A stretch of 33,038 bases of DNA from Candidatus Omnitrophota bacterium. GTDB lineage: Bacteria > Omnitrophota > Gorgyraeia > 2-01-FULL-45-10. Below the pieces are notes generated by a model. The model did no database searches and was not told the origin of the DNA. It was given only the letters and a program-made list of their open reading frames with translations. Shown here piece after piece: positions 1,532 through 33,024 of the stretch. The stretch's first letter is position 1; every line of letters starts with the position of its first letter. The stretch lies in contig JAHFGO010000003.1 in the NCBI GenBank assembly GCA_023247385.1, positions 1 to 33,038 of the forward strand, read 5' to 3'. A program made the position numbers and the translations under genes.

Positions 1532-1536
1532 TATTT

Positions 1537-2721: not shown

Positions 2722-2740
2722 ATTTCGTTAAATATACACT

Positions 2741-3991: not shown

Positions 3992-4000
3992 CTAAACGCC

Positions 4001-6375: not shown

Positions 6376-6398
6376 ATCCACCTCTCTCACAAGTAGCG

Positions 6399-10225: not shown

Positions 10226-10252
10226 ATAATTTTTTCCATATATTAATACTAA

Positions 10253-10281: not shown

Positions 10282-10349
10282 CTACAATCTTACATCATAA
10301 ATATCGCTATATTTAGCTTTGAAAGACTTAGTGGGAAGCAATATCGCTC

Positions 10350-10862: not shown

Positions 10863-10863
10863 C

Positions 10864-12302: not shown

Positions 12303-12315
12303 AATTTCAGCTGTC

Positions 12316-13422: not shown

Positions 13423-13434
13423 CGGGTTTATCTC

Positions 13435-14277: not shown

Positions 14278-14281
14278 TGCC

Positions 14282-16474: not shown

Positions 16475-16486
16475 ATTCTACCAACA

Positions 16487-17416: not shown

Positions 17417-17417
17417 T

Positions 17418-18440: not shown

Positions 18441-19540
18441 ACAAAATTTATATGCATAGGTCTGGCACCTTTTGACCGTTTGAGAACGGCCTTCCCCTGT
18501 TTCAAATCCCAAAGAAATTCATTCACTTTATGCTGAAGACACAAGGTGCCGCACATGGTTCTCGGGTCGAACGAACTGGACGCGATATGATGCATGACCT
18601 CCCAGTATAATTTGCTTTTCCATATCTCTTTAAAAGGCTTATCTGCTATATTGCCGATATGGAATCTTTTATATTTTTTGTTAAATAGCATGCCGCATGG
18701 CGCAACCAACCCTGAGCCTGACATCTGCAAGATAAATGGTGGGCCATAACATTGCGAATATCTCCGCCTGCCGCCGCTTAAAATCTTAGACCATTTGACT
18801 TTTACCAAATATCCTTCGTGTGAATATCGCTCAGCCTCTCTCAAAATATCTGATAATTTAAAATACTGAGAATAATCGACTTTTAAACTCCCGGTTTCGT
18901 CATCGCTGCAATGCTTGATAACGGCGTAGTCGACGCCAAGCTCCTTACCGAGTTTGGCAAATGGAACGACCTGATCAGCGTATTGAGGCATCAATACCAT
19001 CTGTATCCCTAAGCTGACAGGAAGACTCTTTTCCTTTTTTATCCGCGCACATTCTTTTATAGTGCGGCATACTTTATGAAAGCAGTCCTCCTTGCATCCC
19101 ATGATTTCAGCATAGCGTGTCGGTTCTGCTGCTGATATATTGAATCTAAGATAGGTAAGGTTGGGCAACACCTCTTCCAGTCTATCACCAGTCAACAAAT
19201 AACCGTTCGTCCCTAATGCCATATCAAGACCGTTTGCCTTGCCTCTTAAAATTGCATCGTATAAATAAGGAGAGCATGTGCTTTCTCCGTCGCTGACAAA
19301 ACTGACGGCCCTGACCCCTATTTCAGCAGCATCATCGAGGAACCTGAATATTACGTCCCTCGTCATCTTCTTCTCGTCGTTGGCCTGCAGCTGCCCGTAA
19401 CAATATATGCATCTATAAGTGCACCGCCTCGTCAGAGCGCAATCGATTGTTATAGGCGCTATCCTCTCACCCCTTAGCCACGCTTCTATTCTGTCCTTAT
19501 GCCAGACCACTTTTTGACCGTCGAGGATCAGCTCCGCCAT
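18437..19540 (-). CDS. Radical SAM protein with a C-terminal auxiliary Cys region (paralog of 22341..23408)
   Basis: 367 aa. The ATG abuts the upstream stop (TAAATG). The CxxxCxxC motif occurs in ALTRRCTYRCIYCYG, followed by the SDGEST block. The C-terminal cysteines are QCYGPPFILQMSGSGLVAPCG and MCGTLCLQHKVNEFLWDL...HINFV. It aligns along its full length by eye with 22341..23408. Confidence 0.8.
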   Translation of the reverse strand: MAELILDGQKVVWHKDRIEAWLRGERIAPITIDCALTRRCTYRCIYCYGQLQANDEKKMTRDVIFRFLDDAAEIGVRAVSFVSDGESTCSPYLYDAILRGKANGLDMALGTNGYLLTGDRLEEVLPNLTYLRFNISAAEPTRYAEIMGCKEDCFHKVCRTIKECARIKKEKSLPVSLGIQMVLMPQYADQVVPFAKLGKELGVDYAVIKHCSDDETGSLKVDYSQYFKLSDILREAERYSHEGYLVKVKWSKILSGGRRRYSQCYGPPFILQMSGSGLVAPCGMLFNKKYKRFHIGNIADKPFKEIWKSKLYWEVMHHIASSSFDPRTMCGTLCLQHKVNEFLWDLKQGKAVLKRSKGARPMHINFV

Positions 19541-20311
19541 TTATAAATCTCCTCGCCGCCTAATAGCCGTAGAAGAATCGTCTGAGTAACGAATCTCGGC
19601 GTCTTTCTTATTCCTGAAATAAAAATCTTTCACTAGATGCAGATATCCATTTATCACATTTAACAAAGACGGGAATGTGACTGCTTTCGAAGGGCCGTGC
19701 CCTCTCGATCCAACCCGATACGGCACCTCGGCAAAAAGATATCCTTTCTTTACGGCCCTTATCAATATATCGGTTTGAAAGAAAAATCCGTTTGACCTGT
19801 AGTCCATCTCCTTTAATATGGATTTTCGATAAAGATTAGTTCCGTTGGTGTAATTGAAATTTACCAGAAAGCTGGTGTTGACAATGAATCGATAGACGAG
19901 AGAAAGCACGTTTCTGAAAAGAGGCCTTGCCGCTTTATTAAATATGAATGGTATGACTATATCTACCTGTTCAAGTAGTTTGTAATAGCGGAATATCTCA
20001 TTGGGATCGTTCTCGTTATCGCCGGGAAGCATCACTATGATATCTCCGAAGGCGCTATCAAGGCCATCCCAAAACGATGTGCCGACGCCTTTAGGCATCT
20101 CGTGGATGACCATCCGTATTCGACGATCGACTTTTGCCGCATCCCTCACCACCGTCTCTGTGTTATCGCTGCTTCCGTCATTTATGACTATGACCTCGCC
20201 ATTGATATCAAACCTACGAAAAGCATCCAGTGCATTTTTGATGGCGTCCGCAATATTCTTTTCTTCATTGAGTGCCGGCATAATAACCGACACCTCGACC
20301 TTATTTTGCAT
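19541..20311 (-). CDS. GT2 glycosyltransferase, Dpm1/ArnC-like catalytic domain without TM helices (paralog of 14282..14971)
   Basis: 256 aa with an ATG start. Blocks: VSVIMPALNEEKNI, VIVINDGSSDNTETVV, MLPGDNENDP, IVIPFIFNKAARPLFRNVLSLVY. There is no C-terminal membrane helix. Confidence 0.75.
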   Translation of the reverse strand: MQNKVEVSVIMPALNEEKNIADAIKNALDAFRRFDINGEVIVINDGSSDNTETVVRDAAKVDRRIRMVIHEMPKGVGTSFWDGLDSAFGDIIVMLPGDNENDPNEIFRYYKLLEQVDIVIPFIFNKAARPLFRNVLSLVYRFIVNTSFLVNFNYTNGTNLYRKSILKEMDYRSNGFFFQTDILIRAVKKGYLFAEVPYRVGSRGHGPSKAVTFPSLLNVINGYLHLVKDFYFRNKKDAEIRYSDDSSTAIRRRGDL

Positions 20312-21344
20312 GGATAGCTCTCTTCACGCTTGCCATAATCTCTTCCTTGCCCGGATAATATGCCTCTTCGAGAACTGGGCTGGCCGGCGTAGGCGTATCG
20401 GGCAAGCAGACTATCTCTACGGGAGCCTTCAAACAGGAAAAGGCCTTCTCGTAAACGACTGCCGCTATATGGGAGCCGAGACCTCCGGTCTTACAACCAA
20501 CATCAGCGATGACGAGCCTTCCCGTCTTTCTTAAAGAATCGAGTATCAACTCTTCATCCAATGGCTTTATTGTCCTAGGATCTACGATCTCAATATCTAT
20601 ATTCTCAGATTGCAAGGAATCCGCTGCTTTTATTGCCTCGTATACCATCTGCGAGACCGCGACCACAGTTACGTCTTTACCCTGCCTCCTTACGATACCT
20701 TTACCAACAGGAACCTTATAAACATCTGGCGGAACGTATCCAATATAATCATATACCCACCTATGTTCGATAAATATAACGGGGTTGGCGTCTTCCACTG
20801 CCGATATCAAAAGGCCTTTTGCATCATAAGGTGTAGAAGGCATAACTACCTTCAGGCCCGGAATATGGACAAATAGAGAATGCAATGCCTGAGAGTGTTG
20901 TGCAGCCGATCCCCACCCCCTCCCGATAATGCTTCTTATAACAATGGGCACATTTACCCTGCCTCCTGTCATATAATTCCATTTCGCGGCATGATTTATT
21001 ATCTGATCCATGGCCATCAGGAGAAAATCCATCCTCATGTGCACAAATATCGGCCTCATACCGCATATGGCAGCGCCTATCGCTATTCCTGTCAAAGCGT
21101 TCTCTGCTACAGGTATATCCATAACCCTGTCTTTGCCGAACTCTTTAGCTAGCCCAGCCGTGGTTCCAAATATTCCGCCTGAATCATTGACACCCTCTCC
21201 CAGTATGAAAATCCGCTTATCCTTCTTGAGCAGTGCGGATTGCGTCTCCCTTAGCGCTTCGCGATAGGTGATGCCGCGTAGGCCGTCTCTGGCAAGGGTA
21301 TTCTCAAAATCGTCTTTATTTATATATACTCTAGTCCAAGGCAT
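20301..21344 (-). CDS. ThDP-dependent 2-oxoacid dehydrogenase E1 component, beta subunit-like (transketolase Pyr and C-terminal domains)
   Basis: Blocks: ITYREALRETQSALLKKDKRIFILGEGV, VMDIPVAENALTGIAIGAAICGMRPIF, SPYDAKGLL-type PSTPYDAKGLLISAVED. I place the start at the ATG at 21344 (MPWTRV), with AGGA 7 nt upstream. The ORF-track start at 21413 adds 23 residues and a long overlap with the alpha gene. Confidence 0.8.
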   Translation of the reverse strand: MPWTRVYINKDDFENTLARDGLRGITYREALRETQSALLKKDKRIFILGEGVNDSGGIFGTTAGLAKEFGKDRVMDIPVAENALTGIAIGAAICGMRPIFVHMRMDFLLMAMDQIINHAAKWNYMTGGRVNVPIVIRSIIGRGWGSAAQHSQALHSLFVHIPGLKVVMPSTPYDAKGLLISAVEDANPVIFIEHRWVYDYIGYVPPDVYKVPVGKGIVRRQGKDVTVVAVSQMVYEAIKAADSLQSENIDIEIVDPRTIKPLDEELILDSLRKTGRLVIADVGCKTGGLGSHIAAVVYEKAFSCLKAPVEIVCLPDTPTPASPVLEEAYYPGKEEIMASVKRAIHAK

Positions 21345-22326
21345 CTTTTGATCCTGCATAATAAACGTCGTCGTACAATTCTTCTTTTGCGGGAAATGGG
21401 CTCTTTTGCGCAAATCTTACTGCATCTTCTATTTCGCAATCGACGGCTTTAACCATCTCTTCTATCCCGCTTTGGTTAATGATTTTGTTCTTAAATAGAT
21501 ATTTTTTATACGATTCCAGAGGGCATCTCTTCATCCAATCGTATAGCTCTTTCTCAGGCCGGCATCCTTTCTCATAATCGCATTCCGGCCCCACGTGCCC
21601 TTTCCATCTGTATGTTCTGCATTCGATCAATGTTGGACCCTTTCCAGCCCTTATCCTTTCGATGGCCTTCTTCGCCGACTTATATATACCGAGCACATCG
21701 TTCCCATCAACTTGAATACCGGGGATATCGTATCCCTGTGCTCTCCTGGCTATATCATCATGTGGTTGCCGGACCGCTATATGGGAGTTGGTAGCATAAA
21801 AATTATTCTCACAGACAAAGACGACAGGAAGTTTTTTGAGCGAGGCGAAATTCATGCTTTCATGAAATGTGCCTTCATCGACAGCGCCATCCCCAAAGAA
21901 GGCAACAGCTATTTTCTTCTGGCCGTTCATTTTTATAGCCAGCGCCGCACCCGTCGCCAAGGCTATACCGCTGCCGACTATCGCCGAGGTCCCTAATATT
22001 CCAACCTCTGGACTTACCAGATGCATCGACCCGCCCTTGCCGCTTGAGCAGCCACTCGACTTGCCGTAAAGTTCGGCCATTAAAAATCTAATACTTGCGC
22101 CTTTGGCAATATAATGCCCGTGATTTCTGTGCGTGCTGAAGATGATGTCTTCTTTGCACAAGAGAGCGCATACGCCGGCCGCTATGGCTTCTTGTCCAAT
22201 ATATAGATGAACTGGCGTCTTCATATCCTGTGACGGATAAAGCTCCGTTACCTTCTCTTCAAAACGCCGGATCTTGAGCATCGTATAAAATAACTGTTTT
22301 TTTACCGCGGCTTGGATCTTATTCAA
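21331..22326 (-). CDS. ThDP-dependent 2-oxoacid dehydrogenase E1 component, alpha subunit-like
   Basis: The ThDP-binding motif is GDGAVDEGTFHESMNFASLKKLPVVFVCENNFYA (GDG...NN). The N-terminal block YTMLKIRRFEEKV and HLYIGQEAIAAG are also present. I place the start at the TTG at 22326 (MNKIQAAV), 10 nt after AGGAGG and downstream of the upstream TAG stop. The ORF-track start at 22383 is also a TTG but overlaps the upstream gene by 43 nt. Confidence 0.8.
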   Translation of the reverse strand: MNKIQAAVKKQLFYTMLKIRRFEEKVTELYPSQDMKTPVHLYIGQEAIAAGVCALLCKEDIIFSTHRNHGHYIAKGASIRFLMAELYGKSSGCSSGKGGSMHLVSPEVGILGTSAIVGSGIALATGAALAIKMNGQKKIAVAFFGDGAVDEGTFHESMNFASLKKLPVVFVCENNFYATNSHIAVRQPHDDIARRAQGYDIPGIQVDGNDVLGIYKSAKKAIERIRAGKGPTLIECRTYRWKGHVGPECDYEKGCRPEKELYDWMKRCPLESYKKYLFKNKIINQSGIEEMVKAVDCEIEDAVRFAQKSPFPAKEELYDDVYYAGSKDALD

Positions 22327-22340
22327 GATCGCATGCCCTC

Positions 22341-23408
22341 CTAAATAAAATTGACGTGTTCCGGAGGATGTCTCAATTCCCAAAGATACCTGTTTATCTC
22401 ATCCATCCTGCAGTTAACCCTGCACCTATTGGCATCAAGCTTATTTCCAGCCATATTTGCTATCTTCTTTCTTCTCGGCCCGTTCCAGATTTTCTTAAAA
22501 CTATTTTTATAAATGTTTCCGTAAATAAACGACCCATCTCCCAAATATGCACTACACCCCCAAATGTTTCCTCCGGCATCGATATAGCTCCAGAAAGGAA
22601 GGGCATAACAATGCCTGTAATTTCGCTCTGCTTCATCCCATTTCTTCATGGTCTTGACGCGGAAGACGATATTAAATTTTTCATCATTCAGAGCATTCAA
22701 CTCATCTGTTAAATACAGGTACTTGCTGTAACTTATATTCTTGTATTTGCTCGTCTTGCTAAACGGATGGTGTGAATAAGGCTTCACGACCAGATAATCC
22801 ATCCCTAGGGCCTTTGCCTTCTTCGCCAGAAGCACAACCTCGCCGGCGTTTTCATCTAGTAGTAAAAGCTGCATACCAAGAGCACATTCATACTTTTTCG
22901 CCCTTTTTACGCCGACGGCATATGAGAGGTTTTCCATCACTTTGTCGAAATCGTCCGCATTTGCATTATGTATCTTTGCATATCTATCTCGGGTGGCACC
23001 GTTTATGCTCACCTTGATCCAAGAGGTGCTGCCAAGCATCTTATTGATTAGTTCTTTTTTCAATAAGACGCCGTTTGTCGTTAGGGCAACATCAATACCA
23101 AGCCTTTTCGTATAATTGATTATATCCGCTATATCCTTATGAAGCAACGGTTCCCCTTCTCCTGCATACATGATGCTCTTTATGCCTAATCCAGCCATCT
23201 CACACAGCTGCTCTTTCAGTAAAGCGGTGTCGAGAAAGATCGGTCTATATTCCAAAAAATCCAGTGCGCAGAAGGTGCAGCGGTGGTTGCATCCTCCCGA
23301 AGGCGCTATCTCAAGATATATAGGATAAACGGCATTGCCTTTCAGCCAGTCATTAACACGCTCCACATGATAAATCAATTTGTGGCTGTCTATCTTAAAT
23401 TTATCCAT
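22341..23408 (-). CDS. Radical SAM protein with a C-terminal auxiliary Cys region (paralog of 18437..19540)
   Basis: 355 aa. The ATG overlaps the upstream stop by 8 nt. The CxxxCxxC motif occurs in APSGGCNHRCTFCAL, followed by the GEGEPLL block. The C-terminal cysteines are HCYALPFWSYIDAGGNIWGCS and RCRVNCRMDEINRYLWEL...HVNFI. Confidence 0.8.
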   Translation of the reverse strand: MDKFKIDSHKLIYHVERVNDWLKGNAVYPIYLEIAPSGGCNHRCTFCALDFLEYRPIFLDTALLKEQLCEMAGLGIKSIMYAGEGEPLLHKDIADIINYTKRLGIDVALTTNGVLLKKELINKMLGSTSWIKVSINGATRDRYAKIHNANADDFDKVMENLSYAVGVKRAKKYECALGMQLLLLDENAGEVVLLAKKAKALGMDYLVVKPYSHHPFSKTSKYKNISYSKYLYLTDELNALNDEKFNIVFRVKTMKKWDEAERNYRHCYALPFWSYIDAGGNIWGCSAYLGDGSFIYGNIYKNSFKKIWNGPRRKKIANMAGNKLDANRCRVNCRMDEINRYLWELRHPPEHVNFI

Positions 23409-23970
23409 TGCGCCCCTTCTTCTCTACCACCCTGTCCACTATGCAGTGGCATACGACAAGATGTGCTATCTCCACATAGCCGTAAGAATGGGACGGCACA
23501 TAGAAATTGATATCACCTATGCCTCTCAACGGATTATTCGGTTTAAATCCGGACATCGTCACTGCGAGGCATTTATTATTCATTGCCCTCGATGCTGCCT
23601 TCAGGATATTTGTGGATGCCCCTGAGCTCGATATAGCAAATAAGATATCACCGGCGCTGGATAACATCTCAACGGGTTTCTCGAAGACATGTTCATAGCC
23701 GAGGTCGTTGGACAGGCAGGTGAGAAGGCTTGCGTCATTGAATGCGATCGCTGGAACATCAGCGTTCTTCAAAAAATCGGTCGATATGTGGCTTGCAATT
23801 GAGGCGCTGCCGCCGTTTCCGATGAAGATTATCTTGTTCGTTCTTCTATCGAGGCTAGCGATTAAACCTGTTATCTTAGATATCGCCTTATCTAATGGCA
23901 TGGTTCTTCTCTTGCCGTCGGTAACTTCTATATTGAGCAAAATATTTTTCAACTGATTAAAATAATTCAT
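23401..23970 (-). CDS. gmhA: SIS-domain sugar-phosphate isomerase, GmhA-like (sedoheptulose-7-phosphate isomerase family)
   Basis: 189 aa with an ATG start. Three blocks line up with remembered E. coli GmhA: IFIGNGGSASIASHISTDF (GmhA CGNGGSHCDAMHFAEE), AFNDASLLTCLSNDLGYEHVF ([20 protein letters not shown]) and GDILFAISSSGASTNILKA (GDVLLGISTSGNSANVIKA). Confidence 0.65.
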   Translation of the reverse strand: MNYFNQLKNILLNIEVTDGKRRTMPLDKAISKITGLIASLDRRTNKIIFIGNGGSASIASHISTDFLKNADVPAIAFNDASLLTCLSNDLGYEHVFEKPVEMLSSAGDILFAISSSGASTNILKAASRAMNNKCLAVTMSGFKPNNPLRGIGDINFYVPSHSYGYVEIAHLVVCHCIVDRVVEKKGRNG

Positions 23971-23972
23971 AT

Positions 23973-25514
23973 TTATTTAAGAAGGGTTGTCACATATTTA
24001 TGCAGGGCCACCGGCTCTACGGACGAACGATTTCCTACGATCAAGACCTTCATCGCTCCTGCAGCATTTCCGATGAAACCCACGATATCGATCGGGATGT
24101 CTTTATATACACAGGGCGAGGTTATAGAAAAATACGCATCGCCAGCACCAATCCTATCCACCACCTCCTTGGAGAATACCGGTATCTCGATAAAACCGTC
24201 TTCCTTAGAATAGGCGAGGGCCCCTTTATGCCCGCGGGTGATTATTATCTTCTCGCAGGCGAGCCTCCTACTTATCTTAACGATCAGTTTTTCAAGATTG
24301 GAGACCCTGTCATGGCAGGCAAGCCTGATCTCCGGCTCATCGATACATATATAATCTGCCCTTGGGAATTTTGTGACGACGTTGAAGCCGAAGTTAGCGC
24401 TGTTCGTCTGAACATTTACCGCTAAGTATTTCGATTTCTTGCAAAGGATTTTTAATACCCTATCGGTTATCAGGCCGTGGCCAAAGTCGGCAACCATGAC
24501 CATATCGAACTCATTGAGGCGGGTTTTCAGATAATCGCAGATCTCGTCCTCTATTGTCCTTGGCAGAGGCATGCCGTCCGACAGATAGCATATCTCAAAT
24601 AATTTGTTCAAGAAACTGGGATCGACGAACCTGCGCTTCACCACTACAGGTGCATCGCCTCTGTAGTAAAAATTGCTCCTGACATTCCCTTTCAGGTGTT
24701 TGGGGATGAAATTCCTGTAATCATTGATTGTGCCGATACAGCTTAGCAGCGTGACATCCTTGCAAAATCCAGCCACGTGATTTGCCGCCGCCAGCACCCC
24801 GCCTGCGAAGATCTCTTCGTTCATGAACCTTGTTGCGATGATGTTGTCTTTCTGCGCTTTCCCCATCCCTATGCAATAGTGGTATTCATCTATGATTATG
24901 TCTCCGATAAGCAGGATCTTCACATCCTTGATTCCGTCGAGATGCCTGGTTATATCTCTCGAGGTGTAGCGGTTTTTAAATCTAATAAAAAAATCCTGGG
25001 CCTCTTTGGGATATGGGGCAAAATAACTGTTTATGAGAGCGGAGGAGCTGAATGATATCTCATCGGTAAAATGGAGGAAACCGCCTACTGACTTGACCGC
25101 CTCTTCCTCTTCGTAAATCCTTCCAGTGATATCCTCTCCCCTATTGGCGTAATCACTGCCTTTGACATAGAAATGGGGCTTCAATACCTCTATCGTCTTC
25201 ACAGCTGTGGGCCATTCATTGACCGCCACGAAGTCAACACATTCCATGGCAGCTATACTCTCTGCGCGTAAATTTTGATTAAATACAGGCCTGCCGGGCC
25301 CTTTATTCACATATTCGTCTTTTGTCACAGTAACAACCAATACATCCCCTTTCTGCTTTGCCGCTTCAAAGTGTTTTATATGACCCGGATGAAGCAGGTC
25401 GAATACGCCGTGACAATGAACTATCCTCTTGCCCTTTTTTCTTAAACCTTCCAGGATATCACCAAGCTTCTCAATAGTTTTAATTTTTGAGTAAGAATCT
25501 TGTCTCATCTTCAT
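23973..25514 (-). CDS. Bifunctional HldE/RfaE-like protein with inverted domain order: N-terminal cytidylyltransferase-fold nucleotidyltransferase, C-terminal PfkB sugar kinase
   Basis: 513 aa. The ATG forms an ATGA overlap with the upstream stop. The N-terminal region IVHCHGVFDLLHPGHIKHFEAAKQKGDVLVVTVTKDEYV carries the HxGH nucleotidyltransferase motif. The C-terminal region ILLIGDIIIDEYHY...FAGGVLAAANHVAGF...DRIGAGDAYFS...GNAAGAMKV carries the PfkB/ribokinase signatures. Confidence 0.7.
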   Translation of the reverse strand: MKMRQDSYSKIKTIEKLGDILEGLRKKGKRIVHCHGVFDLLHPGHIKHFEAAKQKGDVLVVTVTKDEYVNKGPGRPVFNQNLRAESIAAMECVDFVAVNEWPTAVKTIEVLKPHFYVKGSDYANRGEDITGRIYEEEEAVKSVGGFLHFTDEISFSSSALINSYFAPYPKEAQDFFIRFKNRYTSRDITRHLDGIKDVKILLIGDIIIDEYHYCIGMGKAQKDNIIATRFMNEEIFAGGVLAAANHVAGFCKDVTLLSCIGTINDYRNFIPKHLKGNVRSNFYYRGDAPVVVKRRFVDPSFLNKLFEICYLSDGMPLPRTIEDEICDYLKTRLNEFDMVMVADFGHGLITDRVLKILCKKSKYLAVNVQTNSANFGFNVVTKFPRADYICIDEPEIRLACHDRVSNLEKLIVKISRRLACEKIIITRGHKGALAYSKEDGFIEIPVFSKEVVDRIGAGDAYFSITSPCVYKDIPIDIVGFIGNAAGAMKVLIVGNRSSVEPVALHKYVTTLLK

Positions 25515-26506
25515 TTAGAAAGGTATTGAAACCATTCCTTCGTAGCTTCTCTGATCTTTTCAGGTGTCCATACCGGAGCGCTTCTCCAGTATTCGATCTT
25601 ATCAAGAATCGTTTTAACGCCTTCTTCAAAGGCAACCTTAGGAACCCAACCCAATATCCGCTTTATCTTAGCGATGTGGGCATGAGTGCGGTCCGGCTCT
25701 CCCGGCCTCTTCGGAATATGGACAATGTCACCGCCTAAAAGCTTCGTCAAATAATTGATGCTGTAAGTATTTCCTGATCCGACGTTCATCGTCTCCTGGT
25801 CGCACGTGGATTCAGCAGCCATTAAAAATGCGTTTACCGCATCCGTCACATAGACAAAATCTCTTGTCTGGGTGCCGTCGCCAACAACGGTGAACGGCTT
25901 ATTATTGAGTTTCTGAGCCAAAAATACCCCGAATACGGCGCCATAGGTACCTGATGTCCGCGAGCGCGGGCCGTACACATTAAATAGCCTTAAAGAGATG
26001 ACAGGCAATTTATATACCTGCCCCCAGTGAAGGATCGTCTCTTCTCCCAGATATTTCGTCAGCGCATATGGGTACTGAGGCTTGATGGGGGCTGTTTCCG
26101 CTGTGGGATAAACGTCCGGTATGCCATAGCAAGACGACGATGCAGCGTAAACAAGCCTATCGACTCCGGCTAATCGCGATGCCTCAGCCACACACATGGT
26201 ACCGATGACATTGGAGTTATAATAGATAGATGGATTCACAATAGACGGAACTATATCTGCTAAGGCGGCAATATGAAATACTACGTCGATGCCTTTAAAA
26301 TGCGCCTTTATCTTATCCAGATGAGATATATCCTCTTTGACAATGGTAAGATTTACATTATCCTTCTGATGCGCCAGATTCTCAAGGTTCCCAGTCGAGT
26401 AATTATCTATCACGGTAACCAAATGGCCTTTCTCCAACAACGCATCAACTAAATGGCTGCCGATAAATCCAGCCCCTCCAGTAACCAAACATCTCTCTCC
26501 TCTCAT
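25511..26506 (-). CDS. NAD-dependent NDP-sugar epimerase/dehydratase (extended SDR, WbpP / UDP-hexose 4-epimerase-like)
   Basis: 331 aa. The ATG forms an ATGA overlap with the upstream stop. Motifs: VTGGAGFIGSHL, ASSSCYG...YALTKYLGE (S/Y/K triad), LRLFNVYGPRS, VGDGTQTRDFVYVTD. Confidence 0.8.
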   Translation of the reverse strand: MRGERCLVTGGAGFIGSHLVDALLEKGHLVTVIDNYSTGNLENLAHQKDNVNLTIVKEDISHLDKIKAHFKGIDVVFHIAALADIVPSIVNPSIYYNSNVIGTMCVAEASRLAGVDRLVYAASSSCYGIPDVYPTAETAPIKPQYPYALTKYLGEETILHWGQVYKLPVISLRLFNVYGPRSRTSGTYGAVFGVFLAQKLNNKPFTVVGDGTQTRDFVYVTDAVNAFLMAAESTCDQETMNVGSGNTYSINYLTKLLGGDIVHIPKRPGEPDRTHAHIAKIKRILGWVPKVAFEEGVKTILDKIEYWRSAPVWTPEKIREATKEWFQYLSK

Positions 26507-28236
26507 CTCTCCACCCCTTGAAAAACCAACTCTTTAAGTTTATACCTAAGAGGATACTCACCTGGCGGAGGCAGGATAGGAAAATCCTTATGCAAAAGGT
26601 CCTTATAAGAAATATCCGGATAGTGAGTTAGTATCTCGCCGTTGACAAAGAGCTCGTTATCGCGATACCGCACAACAATAAATTCTTTCGGATCGAGCAT
26701 CTCCTCCCCCAAATTTGTAATCCTCTGACAGGTGGATGGCTTTTCGTCCCCAGATCTTCTTAACAACTCCCATTCCCCGAGAGCAATAGCTTTATATTTA
26801 AGAAATCGAACCGGGTCTTTTGAGTCGGTATACAATACATTAAGCGAAAACTCAAGGCTGTGGAACGATCTCACGCCTGAATTTTTTAGCGGTGTGTCAT
26901 CGATAGCGTCAATCAAAAATGTCGCATTCGGCGGAAGGCTTGGAAATCGCATGGTAAAAGCATTCCAGAATTTCTTTTCGCTATCCCATGCCTTGAAGTA
27001 TAGGTCTATATTGATATTATTGAACAAAACTCCCGCCGCTAAACAAAATGCTATAAATAAATTCATCCATCTCGATCTAATGCTGGGTGCATAGAAAATA
27101 CAATATAGAAAATAGATCAGCCCACCTATGAGAACAGCGTCACCAAACTGCAGGATTATACCGTGCCTATTCTGAAAACCGATGCCGGGTGCGCGGTCCG
27201 TGTATAAATATAGCAATATAGGGGGTATTAAAAGAACGGCGGCTAAAATAAAAATATCCCGCGTTGAAATCCATGCCGCCTTTAAGGATAATCGAACTGG
27301 CTTAAATATATCGGCTCTATTCAGTAGATATAAGCATAGAAAGAACGCAACCAGCCCTAATGACATTGACCATGATGTTGAATAGCGAAAGATGATCCCG
27401 TTCTTCAAATATGAAATCCAGTGATATGACATAAGCATCGCCAAAAGGAATAGGATTTTTCTTCCGTCGAGGAAAAAGCGCACATCTTGCGCATATATAC
27501 CGGAGCAAACGCCGAAAGGTTTATAGGCCATCTTATAGAAGCTTATAGGTAGACACAGCAGAAAGAATGGAAACCATGTCATCAGGGTTTTGTTTAGTAA
27601 AGCTTTATGGCCGAGCGGCTTTTTGGAAAGTATATACCAGATAAAAAAAAGCCTGGCCGGTTCCAGCGCAACGGCCCCTTCAATTAAAACATAATGGGAG
27701 ATGCCGGATAGAATAAGAGCGATTGTCAAGAAAACCCATCTCGCGTCGCGCGCCAGTGCCCTTTCGGTAAGATAAAATGATATTATCGTAAACATGACCC
27801 CCAGACGATATGGCAGGTTGCCATAAAATGGCAATGCGGTATGAATAGGAAAAATTATGAATGCAATAGCCGCAAAGAATGCAAAAAAACGTTTAGTTTT
27901 GAACAGGTTGTTCAATAATGTATAAAGATAAACGGATGAGACGATCTGTATAAAAATGCTTGCGGAATTCCATAGAGGATAAGCGTAGTCGATCTTCTTG
28001 TGAAGCGAATAAAAATAGTATTGAAATATGCCAAGAGGTACTCTCCTAAGCTGCGTAAACCCCATGTCGAGAAATTGCTTCAATCTGCCGGTTGAATATG
28101 CAGATAGGATCCAGCAATTATCGTCCCAGAAGATATCCCGCAGGAACCATAATCGTGCGACGCTAAGGATCCCTACCACAATTATCAGTGGCAAAAAGAA
28201 ATTTCTATCTCTATCACAATAGCGTTCTTCTGCCAT
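26503..28236 (-). CDS. Uncharacterised polytopic membrane protein with a C-terminal soluble domain (tandem paralog B); possible GT-C-type glycosyltransferase or polymerase
   Basis: 577 aa. The ATG shares one base with the upstream stop (TAATG). There are about 11-13 hydrophobic segments. The first loop after TM1 carries RDIFWDDNCWILSAYSTG. A roughly 150-aa non-hydrophobic C-terminus follows (AWDSEKKFWNAF...DPKEFIVVRYRDNELFVNGEIL). I do not recognise the family. Confidence 0.5.
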   Translation of the reverse strand: MAEERYCDRDRNFFLPLIIVVGILSVARLWFLRDIFWDDNCWILSAYSTGRLKQFLDMGFTQLRRVPLGIFQYYFYSLHKKIDYAYPLWNSASIFIQIVSSVYLYTLLNNLFKTKRFFAFFAAIAFIIFPIHTALPFYGNLPYRLGVMFTIISFYLTERALARDARWVFLTIALILSGISHYVLIEGAVALEPARLFFIWYILSKKPLGHKALLNKTLMTWFPFFLLCLPISFYKMAYKPFGVCSGIYAQDVRFFLDGRKILFLLAMLMSYHWISYLKNGIIFRYSTSWSMSLGLVAFFLCLYLLNRADIFKPVRLSLKAAWISTRDIFILAAVLLIPPILLYLYTDRAPGIGFQNRHGIILQFGDAVLIGGLIYFLYCIFYAPSIRSRWMNLFIAFCLAAGVLFNNINIDLYFKAWDSEKKFWNAFTMRFPSLPPNATFLIDAIDDTPLKNSGVRSFHSLEFSLNVLYTDSKDPVRFLKYKAIALGEWELLRRSGDEKPSTCQRITNLGEEMLDPKEFIVVRYRDNELFVNGEILTHYPDISYKDLLHKDFPILPPPGEYPLRYKLKELVFQGVER

Positions 28237-29969
28237 TAGCCCACCAACTCTTTAAGTTTATATCTAAGGGGATATTCTCCCGGCACAGGCAGCCTCGGGA
28301 AATCTTTATTTAAAAGCCCCTTATAGGGAATATCCGGATAACGATCGAGGATCTCACGATTGACAAGGAGCTCCTCGTCCCGATATCGGACTATGATAAA
28401 TTCCTTCGGATCCAAAATATCTTTCCCCCAATTCGTAATTCTTTCATAGATTGATGAATCTTGGATTCTTTTAGACTTTCGTATCAGATCCCACTCATCG
28501 AAGGCAACAGCTTTATGTTTGAGAAACTGTGACGCATCTTTTGAACAAGTATATAAAACATTCAAGGAAAACTCAAGGCTATGAAATGATCTCAGTCCTG
28601 AGTTTTTTAGCGGTGTATCGTCGACAGCGTCTATCAAGAATACGCCTTTTTCAGGTATGCTCGGAAATTTTTTGGTAAAGGCGTTCCAGAACCCTTTCTC
28701 GCTTTCCCATGCCTTGAAATAGAGATCCAGATTCACATTATTGAACAATACCCCACCCCCCAGACAAAGCGCTGTAAATAGATTGAGCCATCTTGATCTG
28801 ACGGCTGATGTATATAGTGTAGAATATAAAAGATATATTAGACCACCGATGAGAACGGCGTCACCGAACTGCAAAATTATACCATGCCTATTCGGGAAAC
28901 CGATGCCTGGTGCCCGGTCAGTAGCCAGATACAGCAAAATGGGGGGCAATAAGAGAAAGAGCGCTAAAATAAAGACGTCCCGAACCGATCTCCATGCGGC
29001 TTTCATGGTTAAATTAAGCGGTTTAAATATATCGGCCCGATTTAGTAGATATACGCATAGAATAAATGCGACCAATCCTAATGATACAGACCATGATGTC
29101 GAATAGTGAAAAACGATCCCTGTTTTCAAGTATGAGATCCAATGGTATGATATGAGCATACCTAAAAGAAATAATATCGTATGCCAATTTAAAAAGAACC
29201 GCACATTCTGCGCATATGTGCCTGCATATATTCCAAAGGGTTTATAGAACGTCTTGTAGAGACTTAGCGGCAGGCATATTAGAAAAAAAGGAAGCCAGAT
29301 CATCAGGCTTTGCTTTAGCGAAGCCTTCGTATCGACCATCTTCGGACGAAGGATATGCCATATCAGAAATAACCGCGCCGGTTCCAGCACAACCGTCCCT
29401 TCTATCAATACATAATGAGAGATGGCCGATAGCGTGAGAGCGACACCAAGAAGCAACATCTTCGTATCGCGCGCCAACGCCCTTTGAGTCAAATAAAAAG
29501 AGAGCATGCTAAACATAATTCCTAACCTATATGGGAGGTTGCTATAATACGGCACGGCAGTATGAATCGGAAAAACTATGAATGCGACGCTGACGAAAAA
29601 GGCCAAAATGCCCTTTGCCTTAAAAAGATTTTTCATAAGCATATAAAGAAAGACTGAAGAGGCAACCTCGATAAAGATGCTGATGGAATTCCATATCGCA
29701 TAGGTATAGTCTATATGTTTATGTAGCATAAAGAAATAATATAGAAATATGCCAAAGGGCGCTCTTCTGAGCTGCATAAATCCTGTATCGAGAAACTCTT
29801 TCAGGCTTCCTGTTGAATATGCGGATAATATCCAGCAATTATCATCCCAGAAGATATCGCGCAAAAACCATATCCTCCCGAAACTGAGAATCCCAGTGAG
29901 GATAATAAGCAACAGGAAGAAATTATTATCCCGTTCGTTTAAAGCCGATGTGCTCATTTTGGAAATCAT
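28236..29969 (-). CDS. Uncharacterised polytopic membrane protein with a C-terminal soluble domain (tandem paralog A); possible GT-C-type glycosyltransferase or polymerase
   Basis: 577 aa with an ATG at 29969; an alternative ATG lies four codons downstream. It is colinear with 26503..28236, and roughly two-thirds of residues look identical by eye. Shared blocks: RDIFWDDNCWILSAYSTG, ISHYVLIEG, SYHWISYLK, TDRAPGIGF.NRHGIILQFGDAVLIGGLIY, DDTPLKNSG.RSFHSLEFSLNVLYT, GEYPLRYKLKELV. Confidence 0.5.
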   Translation of the reverse strand: MISKMSTSALNERDNNFFLLLIILTGILSFGRIWFLRDIFWDDNCWILSAYSTGSLKEFLDTGFMQLRRAPFGIFLYYFFMLHKHIDYTYAIWNSISIFIEVASSVFLYMLMKNLFKAKGILAFFVSVAFIVFPIHTAVPYYSNLPYRLGIMFSMLSFYLTQRALARDTKMLLLGVALTLSAISHYVLIEGTVVLEPARLFLIWHILRPKMVDTKASLKQSLMIWLPFFLICLPLSLYKTFYKPFGIYAGTYAQNVRFFLNWHTILFLLGMLISYHWISYLKTGIVFHYSTSWSVSLGLVAFILCVYLLNRADIFKPLNLTMKAAWRSVRDVFILALFLLLPPILLYLATDRAPGIGFPNRHGIILQFGDAVLIGGLIYLLYSTLYTSAVRSRWLNLFTALCLGGGVLFNNVNLDLYFKAWESEKGFWNAFTKKFPSIPEKGVFLIDAVDDTPLKNSGLRSFHSLEFSLNVLYTCSKDASQFLKHKAVAFDEWDLIRKSKRIQDSSIYERITNWGKDILDPKEFIIVRYRDEELLVNREILDRYPDIPYKGLLNKDFPRLPVPGEYPLRYKLKELVG

Positions 29970-30019
29970 TCCTTTTATGTATCAGTTGATGACATATTAT
30001 TATAGCAAGATTAGATGAT

Positions 30020-30048
30020 ATTATATTCAGAAATTCACTATAAAACAA
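30020..30048 (-). promoter_or_regulatory. Candidate sigma70-type promoter upstream of the 577-aa paralog pair
   Basis: On the minus strand the sequence is TTGTTT (30048-30043), a 17-nt spacer, then TATAAT (30025-30020). It sits inside the 107-nt AT-rich gap between 30077 and 29969. A second TATAAT lies about 20 nt further downstream. AAGGA immediately precedes the ATG. Confidence 0.3.
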
Positions 30049-30076
30049 CTATAATTTCTACTGTAGCATACGATGC

Positions 30077-30994
30077 CTATTTAAATCCGAGCCTGAACCT
30101 TAAGAGGGCTGCGATGACTCCTATATATGCTTTATAATTTGCTGGGTATTCGCCCAGCGCCTTAACGTACCATCTCCTTGCCTCGTTAAAGTTCCTTTTA
30201 TGATTATACATCCTCCCCGCCCCGCACATGACCGATGACCTTCGTTTTTTTATCATCTTACGTATGGCTCTATTGCCTGCGTCAAGAGCCGCAAAATGAG
30301 AATCCAAAATGCGAAGGACATTTACGGTATCCGCATCTATGTTTCCCATCATAAGGCCGTTATCGACAACCCTATAGCATCCCAACACATCGCTTATCAG
30401 ATAGAAACGATACCTTTGGGCTAAGCGCAACCAGTATTCATAATCCTCGGCCGCAAAGAAATTTCTGTCTTCAGAAAATCTGTAACCGTCTTTATAGAAT
30501 ATGCTGCTGCGAATTACAACGGCAGACGTTCCGACACAGCTGCCTTCAAAGAGAAGCCTCCTATACAGCCCTTCCGTGTATGGGCCAAATGACGCATTCC
30601 TTATTATCTTGCCGTCATGCATTATAGCCAGATTATGGCAGACTACACCTATATCTGGCATATCATCGAAGGCCGTTTTGCATTTCCTTAATTTGTCTTT
30701 GTACCAGAAATCATCTCCGTCCAAAAATGCGATGAGATTGCCTCTTGCAAGGCCCATTCCTTTATTTCGCGGGCACGCCGATAAGCCGCAATTGGTTTCA
30801 TATACATACCTTATTCTCTTGTCGGAGAAGGAGGCCACGATCTCTTTTGTGTTGTCTGTGGAGCCGTGATCTACCACTATCACCTCGAAATCGCGAAAGG
30901 TCTGGCTCAGAACAGACTCTATCGTCTGGCGCAGAAAAAGGCCCTTGTTATGGGTTGTGATCACCACGCTAAACTCGCAAGTGCCTTCACTCAT
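30077..30994 (-). CDS. GT2 glycosyltransferase (WcaA/EpsJ-like soluble type)
   Basis: 305 aa. The ATG forms an ATGA overlap with the upstream stop. Blocks: FSVVITTHNKGLFLRQTIESVLSQT, VIVVDHGSTDNT, FLDGDDFWYKDKL. The C-terminus is helical and repeat-like (ARRWYVKALGEYPANYKAY). Confidence 0.8.
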   Translation of the reverse strand: MSEGTCEFSVVITTHNKGLFLRQTIESVLSQTFRDFEVIVVDHGSTDNTKEIVASFSDKRIRYVYETNCGLSACPRNKGMGLARGNLIAFLDGDDFWYKDKLRKCKTAFDDMPDIGVVCHNLAIMHDGKIIRNASFGPYTEGLYRRLLFEGSCVGTSAVVIRSSIFYKDGYRFSEDRNFFAAEDYEYWLRLAQRYRFYLISDVLGCYRVVDNGLMMGNIDADTVNVLRILDSHFAALDAGNRAIRKMIKKRRSSVMCGAGRMYNHKRNFNEARRWYVKALGEYPANYKAYIGVIAALLRFRLGFK

Positions 30995-33024
30995 AACATT
31001 GCTCCGACTTCGACCTTCTGCTTTCTTTTACTCAACAATAGGCTCTCCCATCCGTTTAAGTCTTTATTCAGCGACCAGTATCGTTTGAGGAACCGGCGAT
31101 ATTCATCGGGACTATGCAGACGATAACCGTCGATGATATGCCCCATAGCGGAAGCAAGTTCTTCTGCCGATCTTACTTTATGATGATATCCTTCGAAATC
31201 CGCCAAAGGGTTCATGAGCATCGAATCCGGAAATACTGGAACGATAACCTCACATCCAAATGCAAGCGCCTCAATTGCAACCGTGCTCGTCGGAACCAGA
31301 AGGGCCCATGCTTTTTTAAGGCAGCTGTAGATATCGTCGACGCAAATCTTATAATCTCTGCCATCCGGCGCTTCGATGCCCATATCTCTGAACAGTCTCT
31401 TCATTGGCATGCAGGGGTGCCCTTTGAACCACACCTCCAAACTTCCTGTTTTCGGAAAGGCACTCAGGGCCATTCTAACCAGGTTCATCGATTCCACTTT
31501 ATCTATCGATCCTGCCACCAATAAGAGAGGCCGCCTCCTTTCGCGCGCAGGGAGATCTTCAGTTGACAATATATCGCTAAGATATATGTGACGAAGGGCC
31601 TCTACCTTTTTTACATTGCGGAACCCGCGATCTTCAAAATATGCACAAGGGAGATCTCCGTTACATGCGAGGATATCAGGTAGCGGCATGGTCTTAATGC
31701 CATCGGTTGGACCCAATTCTCTCTTATCGTAAAGGTACTGAAAATCATTTTTTGAAAATGAGGTATGCAGAAAGCCTATTGTCCTGACATGTGGGGCACA
31801 TTCTCTTTTGGCAGCGTTAAGCGCCTTCTCCCATGCCTGCATCTCACAATAGTAAAGGCAATCGTTTATATTGGATATTTTTTTAAATGCTTCACGAAAA
31901 ATAAGGTAATGGATTATCCCGTTTATGGCTGTGGTGCCGTAAAACGATCTATCCCATAACGACTTTACGAACGGAATGGACTCCTCGCCAACCGGATCCG
32001 ACAGCAGCCTGCTTTTATCGATACAATTGAATAAATAGCGGCCAACCATCAGCTGGCGAAACCATAAAGCTAGACTTCTAAAGAGATGTCTCATTGTGAA
32101 AAACTCTTCTGTCATGAAGAGCTTCTCGCTATTTTGCACAAAATCGCGCACCATATATACAGCATCCTTATACGTATAATCGCCGAGTTCCGGGACATAC
32201 ATAACTAGCCACGCCACCTCAATATTTAGCTCTTTCAATTTATCCTGCAGCCCAGCGGCATACTTATTACGAAATACGCCTTTTAGAGAGGCGTCTTTTT
32301 CAACCATCGGGAAATACGTTATGAAGAGAAGCGATGGCCGACGAGGCGAACGTCCCTCGATCTGCCCAAGGAGCCTACGTGCAATGACTCCGCGTTGAAA
32401 GGCTCTTGCAGCGTATGCGACTATCGATATGACGTCTCCGATTATTCCTAACCCGCTCACCAAACTCCTAAGGCGCGTTGTTTCATTTTTCGGACGCTCC
32501 TTAAGCGACTTTACGCGCACGTTAAGCGAGCGGCAGACTGATTTTACTGCTTCTCGAAGATTCTTATCCGCCGCCGCGATCAGACACATATCATAGGAGC
32601 CTGCCTTAAGGATCTTCTTAATGGCTCTCGTCTGCGCTATTCGAAAGAAGGCGTTTGTCTTTAACGGATTTTTTTCGGAAAGGAGGCCGAGCCACCATGT
32701 GCTGATATTGAATCCAGGCATAGCTAAGTGCTCCTTGACCGTCCTTCCGTCAATAGCACATTCGCCGATTCGGGCTGACCATTCGGCAAGTCCATTCCGC
32801 AAGAGGCCGATCTCTTCATCCAATATTTTTATAGGGTCAAAACACCTTGTGGAAAGACAGCCTTGTCCAAGAAGACGTTTTGCGTCTTCAATCATAGTGC
32901 AATCAGACGTTAGCGGCAGGATATCCACCTCCCGCATTTCAATATTATCGATGAGATTTACTATGCCGTTTATCGAATCATCAAATATAAACAATCCCTT
33001 ATTAAAAAACATGCTTTTTATCAT
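30991..33024 (-). CDS. Large uncharacterised protein; the C-terminal third has a GT-B / capsule-polymerase-like Rossmann pattern
   Basis: 677 aa with an ATG at 33024; only 14 nt of upstream sequence are available. It is soluble-looking apart from one hydrophobic stretch (LVSGLGIIGDVISIVAYAA). Notable blocks: FNISTWWLGLLSEKNPLK, PLLLVAGSID, ALLVPTSTVAIEALAFGCEVIVP. I cannot assign a family from memory with confidence. Confidence 0.4.
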   Translation of the reverse strand: MIKSMFFNKGLFIFDDSINGIVNLIDNIEMREVDILPLTSDCTMIEDAKRLLGQGCLSTRCFDPIKILDEEIGLLRNGLAEWSARIGECAIDGRTVKEHLAMPGFNISTWWLGLLSEKNPLKTNAFFRIAQTRAIKKILKAGSYDMCLIAAADKNLREAVKSVCRSLNVRVKSLKERPKNETTRLRSLVSGLGIIGDVISIVAYAARAFQRGVIARRLLGQIEGRSPRRPSLLFITYFPMVEKDASLKGVFRNKYAAGLQDKLKELNIEVAWLVMYVPELGDYTYKDAVYMVRDFVQNSEKLFMTEEFFTMRHLFRSLALWFRQLMVGRYLFNCIDKSRLLSDPVGEESIPFVKSLWDRSFYGTTAINGIIHYLIFREAFKKISNINDCLYYCEMQAWEKALNAAKRECAPHVRTIGFLHTSFSKNDFQYLYDKRELGPTDGIKTMPLPDILACNGDLPCAYFEDRGFRNVKKVEALRHIYLSDILSTEDLPARERRRPLLLVAGSIDKVESMNLVRMALSAFPKTGSLEVWFKGHPCMPMKRLFRDMGIEAPDGRDYKICVDDIYSCLKKAWALLVPTSTVAIEALAFGCEVIVPVFPDSMLMNPLADFEGYHHKVRSAEELASAMGHIIDGYRLHSPDEYRRFLKRYWSLNKDLNGWESLLLSKRKQKVEVGAML

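Follow-up and report, generated by a model that had tools for sequence, protein, structure and literature searches.

We analyzed a 33,038-nucleotide stretch of DNA from a Candidatus Omnitrophota bacterium (GenBank assembly GCA_023247385.1, contig JAHFGO010000003.1, positions 1 to 33,038; hereafter the window), focusing on two adjacent genes, termed copies A and B, that encode polytopic membrane proteins. Both products are likely to be catalytically competent members of an unannotated family of integral membrane glycosyltransferases with the GT-C_A fold. Each would have a cytoplasmic N terminus and 11 transmembrane (TM) helices and would act on the periplasmic side of the membrane, transferring a polyprenyl-phosphate-linked monosaccharide, probably with inversion, onto a surface glycan or another envelope acceptor. 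A glycosyltransferase family 2 (GT2) enzyme of the Dpm1/ArnC/PgfS type would make the donor in the cytoplasm, from where it would be flipped across the membrane. A first-pass annotation of this DNA, made from the letters alone, had offered a GT-C interpretation of the pair and named three findings that would refute it; all three were looked for computationally and none turned up, and every test that could be run supports the interpretation.

28236..29969, minus strand: copy A, unnamed GT-C-like family; longest open reading frame (ORF), 577 aa, 1734 nt including the stop codon
26503..28236, minus strand: copy B, tandem paralog of A; ORF of 577 aa, 1734 nt including the stop codon

An old tandem pair under purifying selection

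The ORF listing and the junction sequence bear out the first-pass description of two back-to-back 1734-nt genes joined by TAATG. The junction reads ...GGGC-TAATG-GCA, with one base common to the stop codon of A and the start codon of B, an overlap that suggests translational coupling. By BLASTP, the two proteins are identical at 401 of 572 positions (70%, with 82% positives, one gap, and an E value of 0), compared with the roughly two-thirds estimated earlier by eye, and all four blocks quoted at that time as fully conserved are identical in the alignment. The equal length remarked on in the same annotation holds for the longest ORFs, both 577 aa, but is a coincidence, because the alignment has offsets of 4 residues at the N terminus and 5 at the C terminus plus one internal gap. 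In the public gene calls, copy A has 573 aa and begins at M5 (the second ATG), and the sole AAGGA-type Shine–Dalgarno-like motif directly abuts the first ATG; the start codon of copy A is ambiguous.

Nei–Gojobori (NG86) estimates for the pair are dN 0.195 and dS ≈2.2 (pS 0.71, near saturation), or dN/dS ≈0.09, and both copies are therefore under purifying selection. Sliding-window pS is uniformly high (0.56–1.03), with no sign of gene conversion between A and B, and the duplication is old. Divergence is concentrated in the cytoplasmic loops, some TM helices, and residues 481–520 of the C-terminal domain, the most diverged stretch at 49% identity; the extracytoplasmic loops EL1, EL3, and EL5 are 81–100% identical between the copies. 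Copy B retains the family-invariant residues, and the notable change among near-invariant positions is Y248 to C. The only sizeable intergenic space near the pair is a 107-bp AT-rich gap (29970..30076) with TATAAT-like hexamers on each strand; over the region as a whole, the 19 promoter-like sites are no significant excess over shuffled sequence (13.7 ± 3.4).

A small, unnamed family found mostly in Nitrospirota

The first-pass annotation called the family unrecognised, and Pfam and NCBIfam agree in placing A and B in no characterised family: neither copy matched a model at E ≤ 0.01. Across 27 family members, no consistent Pfam match appeared even at E ≤ 10, only scattered noise, and PMT_2 (PF13231; CAZy GT39–GT83) gave no match at that threshold. 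The YfhO model (PF09586) matched neither A and B nor any of the 27 members; it does recognise a genuine YfhO protein in one of the loci described below (L001). Ten distant members searched against Pfam at E ≤ 1 gave scattered noise and faint tetratricopeptide repeat (TPR) tails, with PMT_2 not among the matches.

A word-indexed search of 5.8 billion proteins returned 28 relatives of 518–596 aa and one 355-aa fragment, 31–52% identical to copy A and, where named, described as hypothetical proteins of Nitrospirota or Nitrospiraceae metagenome-assembled genomes (MAGs). When 1.84 billion cluster representatives were searched exhaustively with a hidden Markov model (HMM), 471 proteins reached E ≤ 1e-3 and 112 reached E ≤ 1e-30. 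This set includes more distant forms of 660–900 aa whose membrane part lacks any Pfam domain, a few of them with C-terminal TPR repeats, and a third search with a broad profile added only hypothetical and TPR-annotated proteins. By genome, the matches lie in Nitrospirota/Thermodesulfovibrionia MAGs, together with a single Omnitrophota, a MAG carrying the label Levybacteria, and an unclassified uncultured bacterium. Overall, this is a small family without a name, and most of its members come from Nitrospirota MAGs. For the analyses below, a narrow family alignment contained 27 sequences and a broad one 59 (mean column identity 21%); other genomic loci carrying family genes are given L-numbers (L001, L004, and so on to L018).

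Predicted structure and remote homology point to the GT-C_A class

GT-C_A enzymes share their first seven TM helices and two juxtamembrane helices, JM1 and JM2; the catalytic Asp sits at the JM1 apex, and TM7 is followed by a loop that gates the donor (PMC12041525). The tabulated GT-C_A families are inverting, and all but GT66 use lipid-phosphate-monosaccharide donors (PMC10920833, Table 1). An AlphaFold2 (AF2) model built on the 27-sequence alignment (predicted local distance difference test score (pLDDT) 85.9, predicted TM-score 0.87) contains 11 long TM helices, followed at the C terminus by an alpha/beta domain of ≈135 to 160 residues, much as the first-pass annotation had it with many TM segments and a soluble tail of about 150 aa. 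TM1 spans residues 2–35 and TM2 residues 89–115, and between them EL1 forms helices at 41–52, 56–60, and 70–85 (pLDDT 87–94; DSSP on the model). Ten further long helices follow EL1, with a 50-residue lower-confidence loop between TM7 and TM8, and the model ends in a long helix projecting out of the membrane and then the alpha/beta domain.

When the model was compared with the PDB by Foldseek, the top 14 matches were all GT-C proteins, in agreement with the first-pass idea: oligosaccharyltransferase (OST) chains, Pmt4, DPY19, and ArnT, with probabilities of 0.91–1.0. The OST chains, of 640–706 residues, come from yeast, human, and canine complexes, and their size suggests the catalytic subunit, STT3. 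Lower in the list stand AglB, another ArnT entry, and ALG3. Unrelated membrane proteins (major facilitator superfamily transporters and G protein-coupled receptors) and WaaL had probabilities of at most 0.25.

That ranking bears on another proposal of the first-pass annotation, that A and B might supply the missing O-antigen polymerase (Wzy) or ligase (WaaL) function. In its favor, the 29 ORFs of the window include no recognisable Wzy, WaaL, Wzx, Wzz, or ABC transporter; however, the contig is 168.7 kb long and the window covers just 33 kb of it, so such functions may be encoded elsewhere. Ligases and SEDS proteins make up GT-C_B, polymerases fall in separate clans, and the whole group uses lipid-diphosphate-oligosaccharide donors (PMC10920833). 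The model showed no such similarity: WaaL (7tpg) reached a Foldseek probability of 0.23 and a TM-score of 0.12, far below the GT-C_A matches, and no SEDS protein was among the top 50. The family also has an acidic motif right after TM1 and EL1 helices, as is typical of GT-C_A. A polymerase or ligase role is not supported, and we consider it extremely unlikely.

To look for remote homology, we aligned 36 bona fide PMT_2/GT39-like proteins, with the recognisable GT-C gene of the window as the seed.

2741..3991, minus strand: PMT_2 ArnT-like GT-C, 416 aa (Pfam PMT_2 E 3e-10; homologs named GT39/ArnT-like by their sources)

With hhalign, the 59-sequence family profile matched this set with a probability of 82.9%, E 9.2e-6, and a score of 54.0 over 171 columns at ≈12% identity. 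The match places family residues 56–237 on PMT_2 residues 50–222, the Pfam PMT_2 core from late EL1 to TM7. Reversed templates scored ≈22 and 30 block-shuffled templates at most 33.5 (mean ≈23); these control scores, 32 in all, are far lower, and the match is therefore not an artefact of hydrophobic composition. In a permissive alignment, the family W-D-D comes within two residues of the PMT_2 W-E-Y-E after TM1, and the invariant (S/N)-R-H362 of the family falls on the invariant G-R-H of the PMT_2 set; both correspondences lie outside the confident core and are only suggestive.

On the strength of the model and the profile alignment, the predicted fold is assigned to GT-C_A. The pair combines a polytopic N-in core of 11 TM helices, within the 7–13 typical of the class, aligned in register with PMT_2 from late EL1 to TM7, EL1 helices between TM1 and TM2 as in the definition of JM1 and JM2 (PMC12041525), three-dimensional similarity to solved GT-C_A enzymes, with modest scores, and, by conservation and position, an acidic residue at the start or apex of JM1.

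Conserved charges gather on the periplasmic face around an Asp-Asp pair

29841..29846, minus strand: D42-D43 codons of copy A (translation FWDDNC at 29835..29852)
28120..28125, minus strand: D38-D39 codons of copy B (translation FWDDNC at 28114..28131)

Helix counts from a Kyte–Doolittle TM scan disagreed between A and B, and the scan was replaced by the AF2 helix boundaries combined with a positive-inside count. Over the 27 members, the density of Lys plus Arg is 0.22 in predicted cytoplasmic loops versus 0.085 in external loops, and EL1, which carries the FWDD motif, has a net charge of −2.7. This distribution supports a cytoplasmic N terminus and a position of both EL1 and the C-terminal domain on the external side. 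The first-pass annotation had pointed to FWDD just after TM1; FWDDNC is present in both copies, and the charge count puts its loop outside rather than in the cytoplasm.

Conservation follows the same polarity. The cytoplasmic loops hold none of the 66 positions that are invariant or nearly so; 20 are in external loops, 14 in outer TM halves, 24 in the C-terminal region, and 8 in inner TM halves. The conserved charged residues are all on the periplasmic side (D42, D43, R69, R148, E190, E196, R199, H362, and D415). D42 and D43, each at least 90% conserved in both alignments, stand at the N terminus of the first EL1 helix (41–52) and form a candidate catalytic acidic pair. In the mechanism we propose, this near-invariant Asp-Asp at the start of the first short juxtamembrane helix would serve as catalytic base or metal ligand, within a conserved polar ring on the periplasmic face comprising R69, R148, E190, E196, R199, H362, N411, N413, and D415.

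Family genes travel with lipid-phosphate-sugar synthases and sugar-tailoring enzymes

The whole window is one minus-strand glycan operon of 29 ORFs, in which the following genes bear on the donor. Here rSAM denotes radical S-adenosylmethionine proteins and TPP thiamine pyrophosphate.

18437..23408, minus strand: candidate sugar-tailoring block, comprising an rSAM/SPASM protein of 355 aa, TPP-dependent E1 alpha and beta subunits, GT2_256, and an rSAM/SPASM protein of 367 aa (Pfam, NCBIfam)
19541..20311, minus strand: GT2_256, Dpm1-like, 256 aa, candidate polyprenyl-phosphate sugar synthase (NCBIfam)
14978..16474, minus strand: B12-binding rSAM protein (Pfam B12-binding and Radical_SAM)
10350..11385, minus strand: two adjacent small membrane proteins of 170 and 173 aa (hydropathy)
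5425..6390: ArnC-like GT2, 321 aa (GT2_321), E 8e-65 over its full length, with C-terminal TM helices

The first-pass annotation had looked to Dpm1-like GT2s for the lipid-linked sugar. Such enzymes are present further down the operon, but the GT2 immediately upstream of the pair is of the WcaA/TuaG/PglI-like kind. The likeliest synthase in this operon would be GT2_256, a short protein without TM helices whose NCBIfam matches are ArnC (1.7e-15), AglJ (1.9e-12), PpgS (1.3e-9), and dolichyl-phosphate-hexose transferase (1.4e-8). The PMT_2 protein at 2741..3991, the one recognisable GT-C in the window, most likely pairs with the ArnC-like GT2 at 5425..6390 and not with the new family.

In two divergent loci of other genomes, the family gene directly follows a candidate synthase. 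The order in L018 is GtrA (PF04138), a full-length PgfS/ArnC-like GT2 (1.5e-60), and the family gene; in L012, from Omnitrophota, a short-chain dehydrogenase/reductase (SDR) epimerase and a PgfS/ArnC-like GT2 (6.7e-68) precede it. Three-component systems consist of a GtrA flippase, a GtrB lipid-phosphate-sugar synthase, and a GtrC-type GT-C, and include the GT136 pentofuranose systems (PMC11127046). Within that framework, the L018 and L012 gene orders place the family in the GtrC slot. A lipid-phosphate-sugar synthase is encoded with the family in the window (GT2_256, GT2_321) and adjacent to it in L012 and L018; a small flippase, GtrA, is present in L018, and none is recognisable in the window. 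Overall, the association of the family with Dpm1/ArnC-type GT2s is frequent but not universal; the L014 GT2 is only weakly EpsE/PgaC-like and was dropped from the count of Dpm1-type partners.

The sugar-tailoring block is conserved more widely. Its synteny is kept in L001, L004, L008, and L015 at 57–73% identity (70–73% for the rSAM/SPASM protein that follows GT2_256), and the same four loci have GT2_256 orthologs (61–66%) near the family genes. Orthologs of the B12-rSAM protein (41–44%) lie upstream of family genes in L001, L004, L005, L006, L010, L011, and L018, and those of the 170/173-aa proteins (36–49%) stand beside family genes in at least six loci (L001, L004, L005, L008, L015, and L016). 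The Nitrospirota order runs rSAM/SPASM (in some loci), TPP E1 alpha and beta, GT2_256, rSAM/SPASM, an AP_endonuc_2-like gene (in some), the 173- and 170-aa proteins, B12-rSAM, and one or two family genes. The set that travels together, namely the two subunits (alpha and beta) of a pyruvate dehydrogenase E1-like TPP enzyme, a B12-rSAM protein, and two or three rSAM/SPASM proteins (14978..23408 in the window; L001, L004, L008, L015, and L018), suggests a C-branched and/or C-methylated sugar, and these enzymes would probably tailor the sugar that the family transfers. In L018, an acetolactate-synthase-like TPP enzyme takes the place of the E1 pair.

Other neighbors recur outside the window. A soluble TIGR04396/BFO_1060 "surface carbohydrate biosynthesis" glycosyltransferase of ≈445 aa immediately follows the family gene or genes in all Nitrospirota loci examined (L004 at 11748..13085, L001, L005, L006, L008, L009, L010, and L011). 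At 66–88% identity it is more conserved than the family itself, and it is absent from the window. It had been considered as a relative of the TIGR04326-like protein of the window, to which it has no BLAST similarity. In L001, a 1080-aa YfhO-family GT-C (4680..7922) is inserted between the small membrane-protein genes of the conserved module, which gives that locus three GT-C-type proteins in a row over ≈9 kb. L004 has three small ORFs (9239..9949), one of them ParE-like, from a toxin-antitoxin family, between its long- and short-form family genes.

The C-terminal domain is unlike that of oligosaccharyltransferases

28239..28667, minus strand: C-terminal periplasmic alpha/beta domain of copy A (≈residues 435–577), predicted
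26506..26946, minus strand: C-terminal periplasmic domain of copy B, from the colinear alignment with copy A

Modelled alone by AF2 (residues 420–577), the C-terminal domain reached a pLDDT of 88.7 and found no meaningful match in the PDB by Foldseek (best E 0.4, probability < 0.25, TM-score < 0.26). With ≈140 residues and an unmatched predicted fold, it is a candidate acceptor-binding module, lying on the periplasmic side in the mechanism we propose. Judging from the distant relatives that bear TPR repeats, the acceptor-side domain may be exchangeable.

These results bear on whether A and B might be STT3/PglB/AglB-type OSTs, transferring lipid-diphosphate-oligosaccharides en bloc onto proteins. 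The best Foldseek matches are STT3-sized OST chains, AglB is also listed, and in A and B, as in OSTs, a C-terminal periplasmic domain follows a TM core. However, the OST motif WWDYG (searched as WWD and W.D[YWF]G) is absent from 27 of 27 members, as are TIXE and SVSE motifs, and the C-terminal domain model matched no OST-type periplasmic domain. The pair is therefore not of the OST type, despite the STT3 chains at the top of the list. The sequence-level link to PMT_2/ArnT-type proteins and the genomic context of GtrA and PgfS/ArnC-type monosaccharide-phosphate-lipid synthases also argue against en bloc transfer, which we regard as very unlikely.

Evidence against the glycosyltransferase assignment

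Several observations count against the reading of A and B as GT-C_A glycosyltransferases. Foldseek E-values for the GT-C matches are only 1e-3 to 3e-2, and global superposition is poor (TM-scores 0.28–0.40, RMSD 12–18 Å); the structural case therefore rests on the specificity of the ranking and not on tight superposition. The narrow 27-sequence profile matched PMT_2 with an hhalign probability of only 5%, the confident stretch obtained with the broad profile excludes the DD motif, and profile searches of PDB sequences gave no match with the narrow profile and one spurious match, to L4 at E 2.7, with the broad one. The topology comes solely from a positive-inside count on AF2 helix boundaries. 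As for the donor, GT2_256 scores far below every NCBIfam equivalog cutoff, no GtrA, SMR, or MATE flippase is recognisable in the window, and no Dpm1/ArnC-type GT2 was found within ≈9 to 10 kb of the family genes in L005, L014, L016, and L017.

The fold itself also extends beyond glycosyltransferases: PIGU has a GT-C-like fold in a non-glycosyltransferase (PMC12041525). By this precedent, A and B could be GT-C-fold proteins devoid of transferase activity, acting as a scaffold, a PIGU-like accessory subunit, or, given the lack of a recognisable flippase in the window, a flippase for lipid-linked sugars. Against such roles, the DD pair is near-invariant at the canonical catalytic position across 59 sequences whose mean column identity is 21%, the conserved charged residues are all on the periplasmic face, and L018 already has a GtrA flippase beside its family gene. 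We see only a slight chance that the proteins lack transferase activity, and we continue to read them as GT-C_A glycosyltransferases.

A lineage-specific duplication in a family prone to pairing

30991..33024, minus strand: TIGR04326-like surface carbohydrate biosynthesis protein, 677 aa (NCBIfam, 220 bits versus a cutoff of 250)
30077..30994, minus strand: WcaA/TuaG/PglI-like GT2, 305 aa (GT2_305), immediately upstream of the pair (NCBIfam)

Each copy has the other as its closest relative. Next in similarity comes P0003 (52% identical), whose locus has a single family gene yet is collinear with the window, sharing the order TIGR04326-like, GT2_305-like, family gene, GT2_256, the 367-aa rSAM protein, GT2_309, and the small 173/170-aa proteins. 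In L015, one family gene is preceded by orthologs of the TIGR04326-like protein (45% identical) and GT2_305 (58%), arranged as in the window. Since A and B are closest to each other and their collinear relative is single-copy, the pair in the window is the product of a tandem duplication specific to its lineage.

Pairing is nonetheless common in the family. Of 14 informative loci, 9 have two members side by side, and such pairs arose separately at least four times: the window pair (70% identical), L001 (45%), L005 (58%), L017, and a combination of long and short forms. The long form, of ≈685 aa and ≈21% identical to the short, lies directly upstream of it in L004 (7049..9106), L006, L008, L010, and L011, and matches the family HMM with E values of 1e-43 to 1e-56. 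L015, L012, L014, L016, and L018 are single-copy.

We favor two active enzymes that would differ in acceptor position or linkage; after the lineage-specific duplication, the copies would most likely act in parallel or sequentially. A precedent is the Pgf system of Streptococcus mutans, in which PgfS is the only synthase for both GT-C paralogs, PgfM1 and PgfM2 (bioRxiv 10.1101/2024.05.05.592596). They might instead form an obligate heterodimeric GT-C, a single functional unit like Pmt1–Pmt2 or EmbA–EmbB, which are established precedents for dimeric GT-C enzymes. The TAATG overlap, with its suggested translational coupling, fits such a unit, as do the repeated origins of adjacent pairs and the presence in the Foldseek list of Pmt4 as a homodimer. 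Yet the closest syntenic relative, L015, has one copy, as do the other single-copy loci, so a heterodimer is not obligatory for the family as a whole, and both copies in the window keep the full set of conserved periplasmic residues, neither looking degenerate. We judge an obligate heterodimer rather unlikely and retain two separately active enzymes as the working explanation.

Other genes of the window

23973..25514: HldE-like bifunctional heptose enzyme (domain matches)
23401..23970: GmhA-like isomerase, adjoining the HldE-like gene

The domain order of the HldE-like protein is reversed relative to the Escherichia coli-type model, with the nucleotidyltransferase at residues 3–154 (HldE 314–463) and the PfkB kinase at 195–495. 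At 563..14304, the operon holds an apparently complete Arn-like (4-amino-arabinose-type) set: a UXS/ArnA-C-like SDR, an ArnB-like aminotransferase, an ArnA-N-like formyltransferase, the ArnC-like GT2, a polysaccharide deacetylase, and the ArnT-like PMT_2 protein. B12-rSAM, GNAT, and GT4 genes are interleaved with this set. The 170- and 173-aa proteins each have about three N-terminal TM helices and a soluble tail with faint winged-helix matches; searches of Pfam and NCBIfam, GtrA- and SMR-like families included, assigned them to no family, and a flippase or accessory role for them is speculation. The longest-ORF rule produced overlaps of 76 nt (17418..18512 with 18437..19540) and 83 nt (20301..21413 with 21331..22383), with both downstream ORFs starting at TTG; these are probably over-extensions by that mechanical rule and not true overlaps.

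Comparison with known systems

The family most resembles ArnT/PMT_2-type enzymes (GT83/GT39, PF13231). Shared features are the N-in core, an acidic W-[DE]-x-[DE]-like motif after TM1 followed by EL1 helices, the in-register profile match from late EL1 to TM7, and an R-H pair conserved in one of the late periplasmic loops. The top structural matches include ArnT and Pmt4, and the donor would in both cases be a lipid-phosphate-monosaccharide from an ArnC/Dpm1-type GT2. The family differs in having no Pfam PMT_2 match in its 27 members, in its ≈12% identity, and in combining 11 TM helices with a C-terminal domain of ≈140 residues, whereas the 416-aa ArnT-like protein of the window lacks such a domain.

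With Gtr-type systems, the family shares its position in the GT-C slot in L018 and L012. In contrast to those systems, the window and most Nitrospirota loci have no recognisable GtrA, SMR, or MATE flippase, their candidate synthase is a Dpm1-like GT2 that is short and has no TM helices, and the family is embedded in a large TPP-E1, rSAM/SPASM, and B12-rSAM module, usually with two GT-C paralogs.

The Pgf system of Streptococcus mutans comprises the GT-A enzyme PgfS, the epimerase PgfE, and the GT-C paralogs PgfM1 and PgfM2 (bioRxiv 10.1101/2024.05.05.592596). PgfM1 is required for GalNAc attachment, and loss of PgfM2 still shifts the mobility of the glycoprotein PrsA, so PgfM2 also contributes (bioRxiv 10.1101/2024.05.05.592596). 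Here, too, one lipid-phosphate-sugar synthase would serve a pair of GT-C paralogs in its operon, and in L012 the GT2 is a full-length PgfS match with an epimerase before it. However, PgfM1 and PgfM2 belong to the YfhO family (PF09586), for which the present family has no match, and Pgf acceptors are Ser/Thr-rich protein regions in a monoderm, whereas the family hosts are mostly Nitrospirota.

STT3, PglB, and AglB (GT66) give the best Foldseek E-values and likewise have a TM core followed by a C-terminal extracytoplasmic domain. These OSTs have 13 TM helices, compared with 11 in the family model, and the family differs from them in lacking WWDYG, in the unrelated fold of its C-terminal domain, and in a context that points to a monosaccharide-phosphate-lipid donor.

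Implications

GT-C enzymes decide the final extracytoplasmic decoration of lipopolysaccharide, cell-wall polymers, and surface proteins, and new GT-C families are still founded singly, as with GT136 in 2024 (PMC11127046). The pair described here most likely represents a new family within the well-known class GT-C_A and not a new kind of system. In a bolder version, the proteins would found a GT-C_A family at CAZy level, bring a novel fold for acceptor binding in the periplasm, and install on the Nitrospirota envelope an unprecedented C-branched and/or C-methylated sugar, carried on polyprenyl phosphate and built by the TPP-E1, rSAM/SPASM, and B12-rSAM enzymes; the paired paralogs, kept repeatedly and independently, would then be a heteromeric or strictly sequential machine of two enzymes, and the 170/173-aa proteins a new flippase or accessory. 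In that full form, we find the proposal distinctly unlikely.

Proteins of this family are invisible to Pfam and NCBIfam, are annotated only as hypothetical, and occur mainly in uncultured Nitrospirota and Omnitrophota, and naming the family would improve the annotation of envelope loci. The DD motif, the synthase partner, and the paired paralogs offer a concrete handle on glycan chemistry, and the genetic tie to conserved TPP- and radical SAM-dependent enzymes suggests that the sugar is an unusual one. The family would thus provide a useful CAZy-level annotation and a lead to unusual glycan chemistry in the Nitrospirota.

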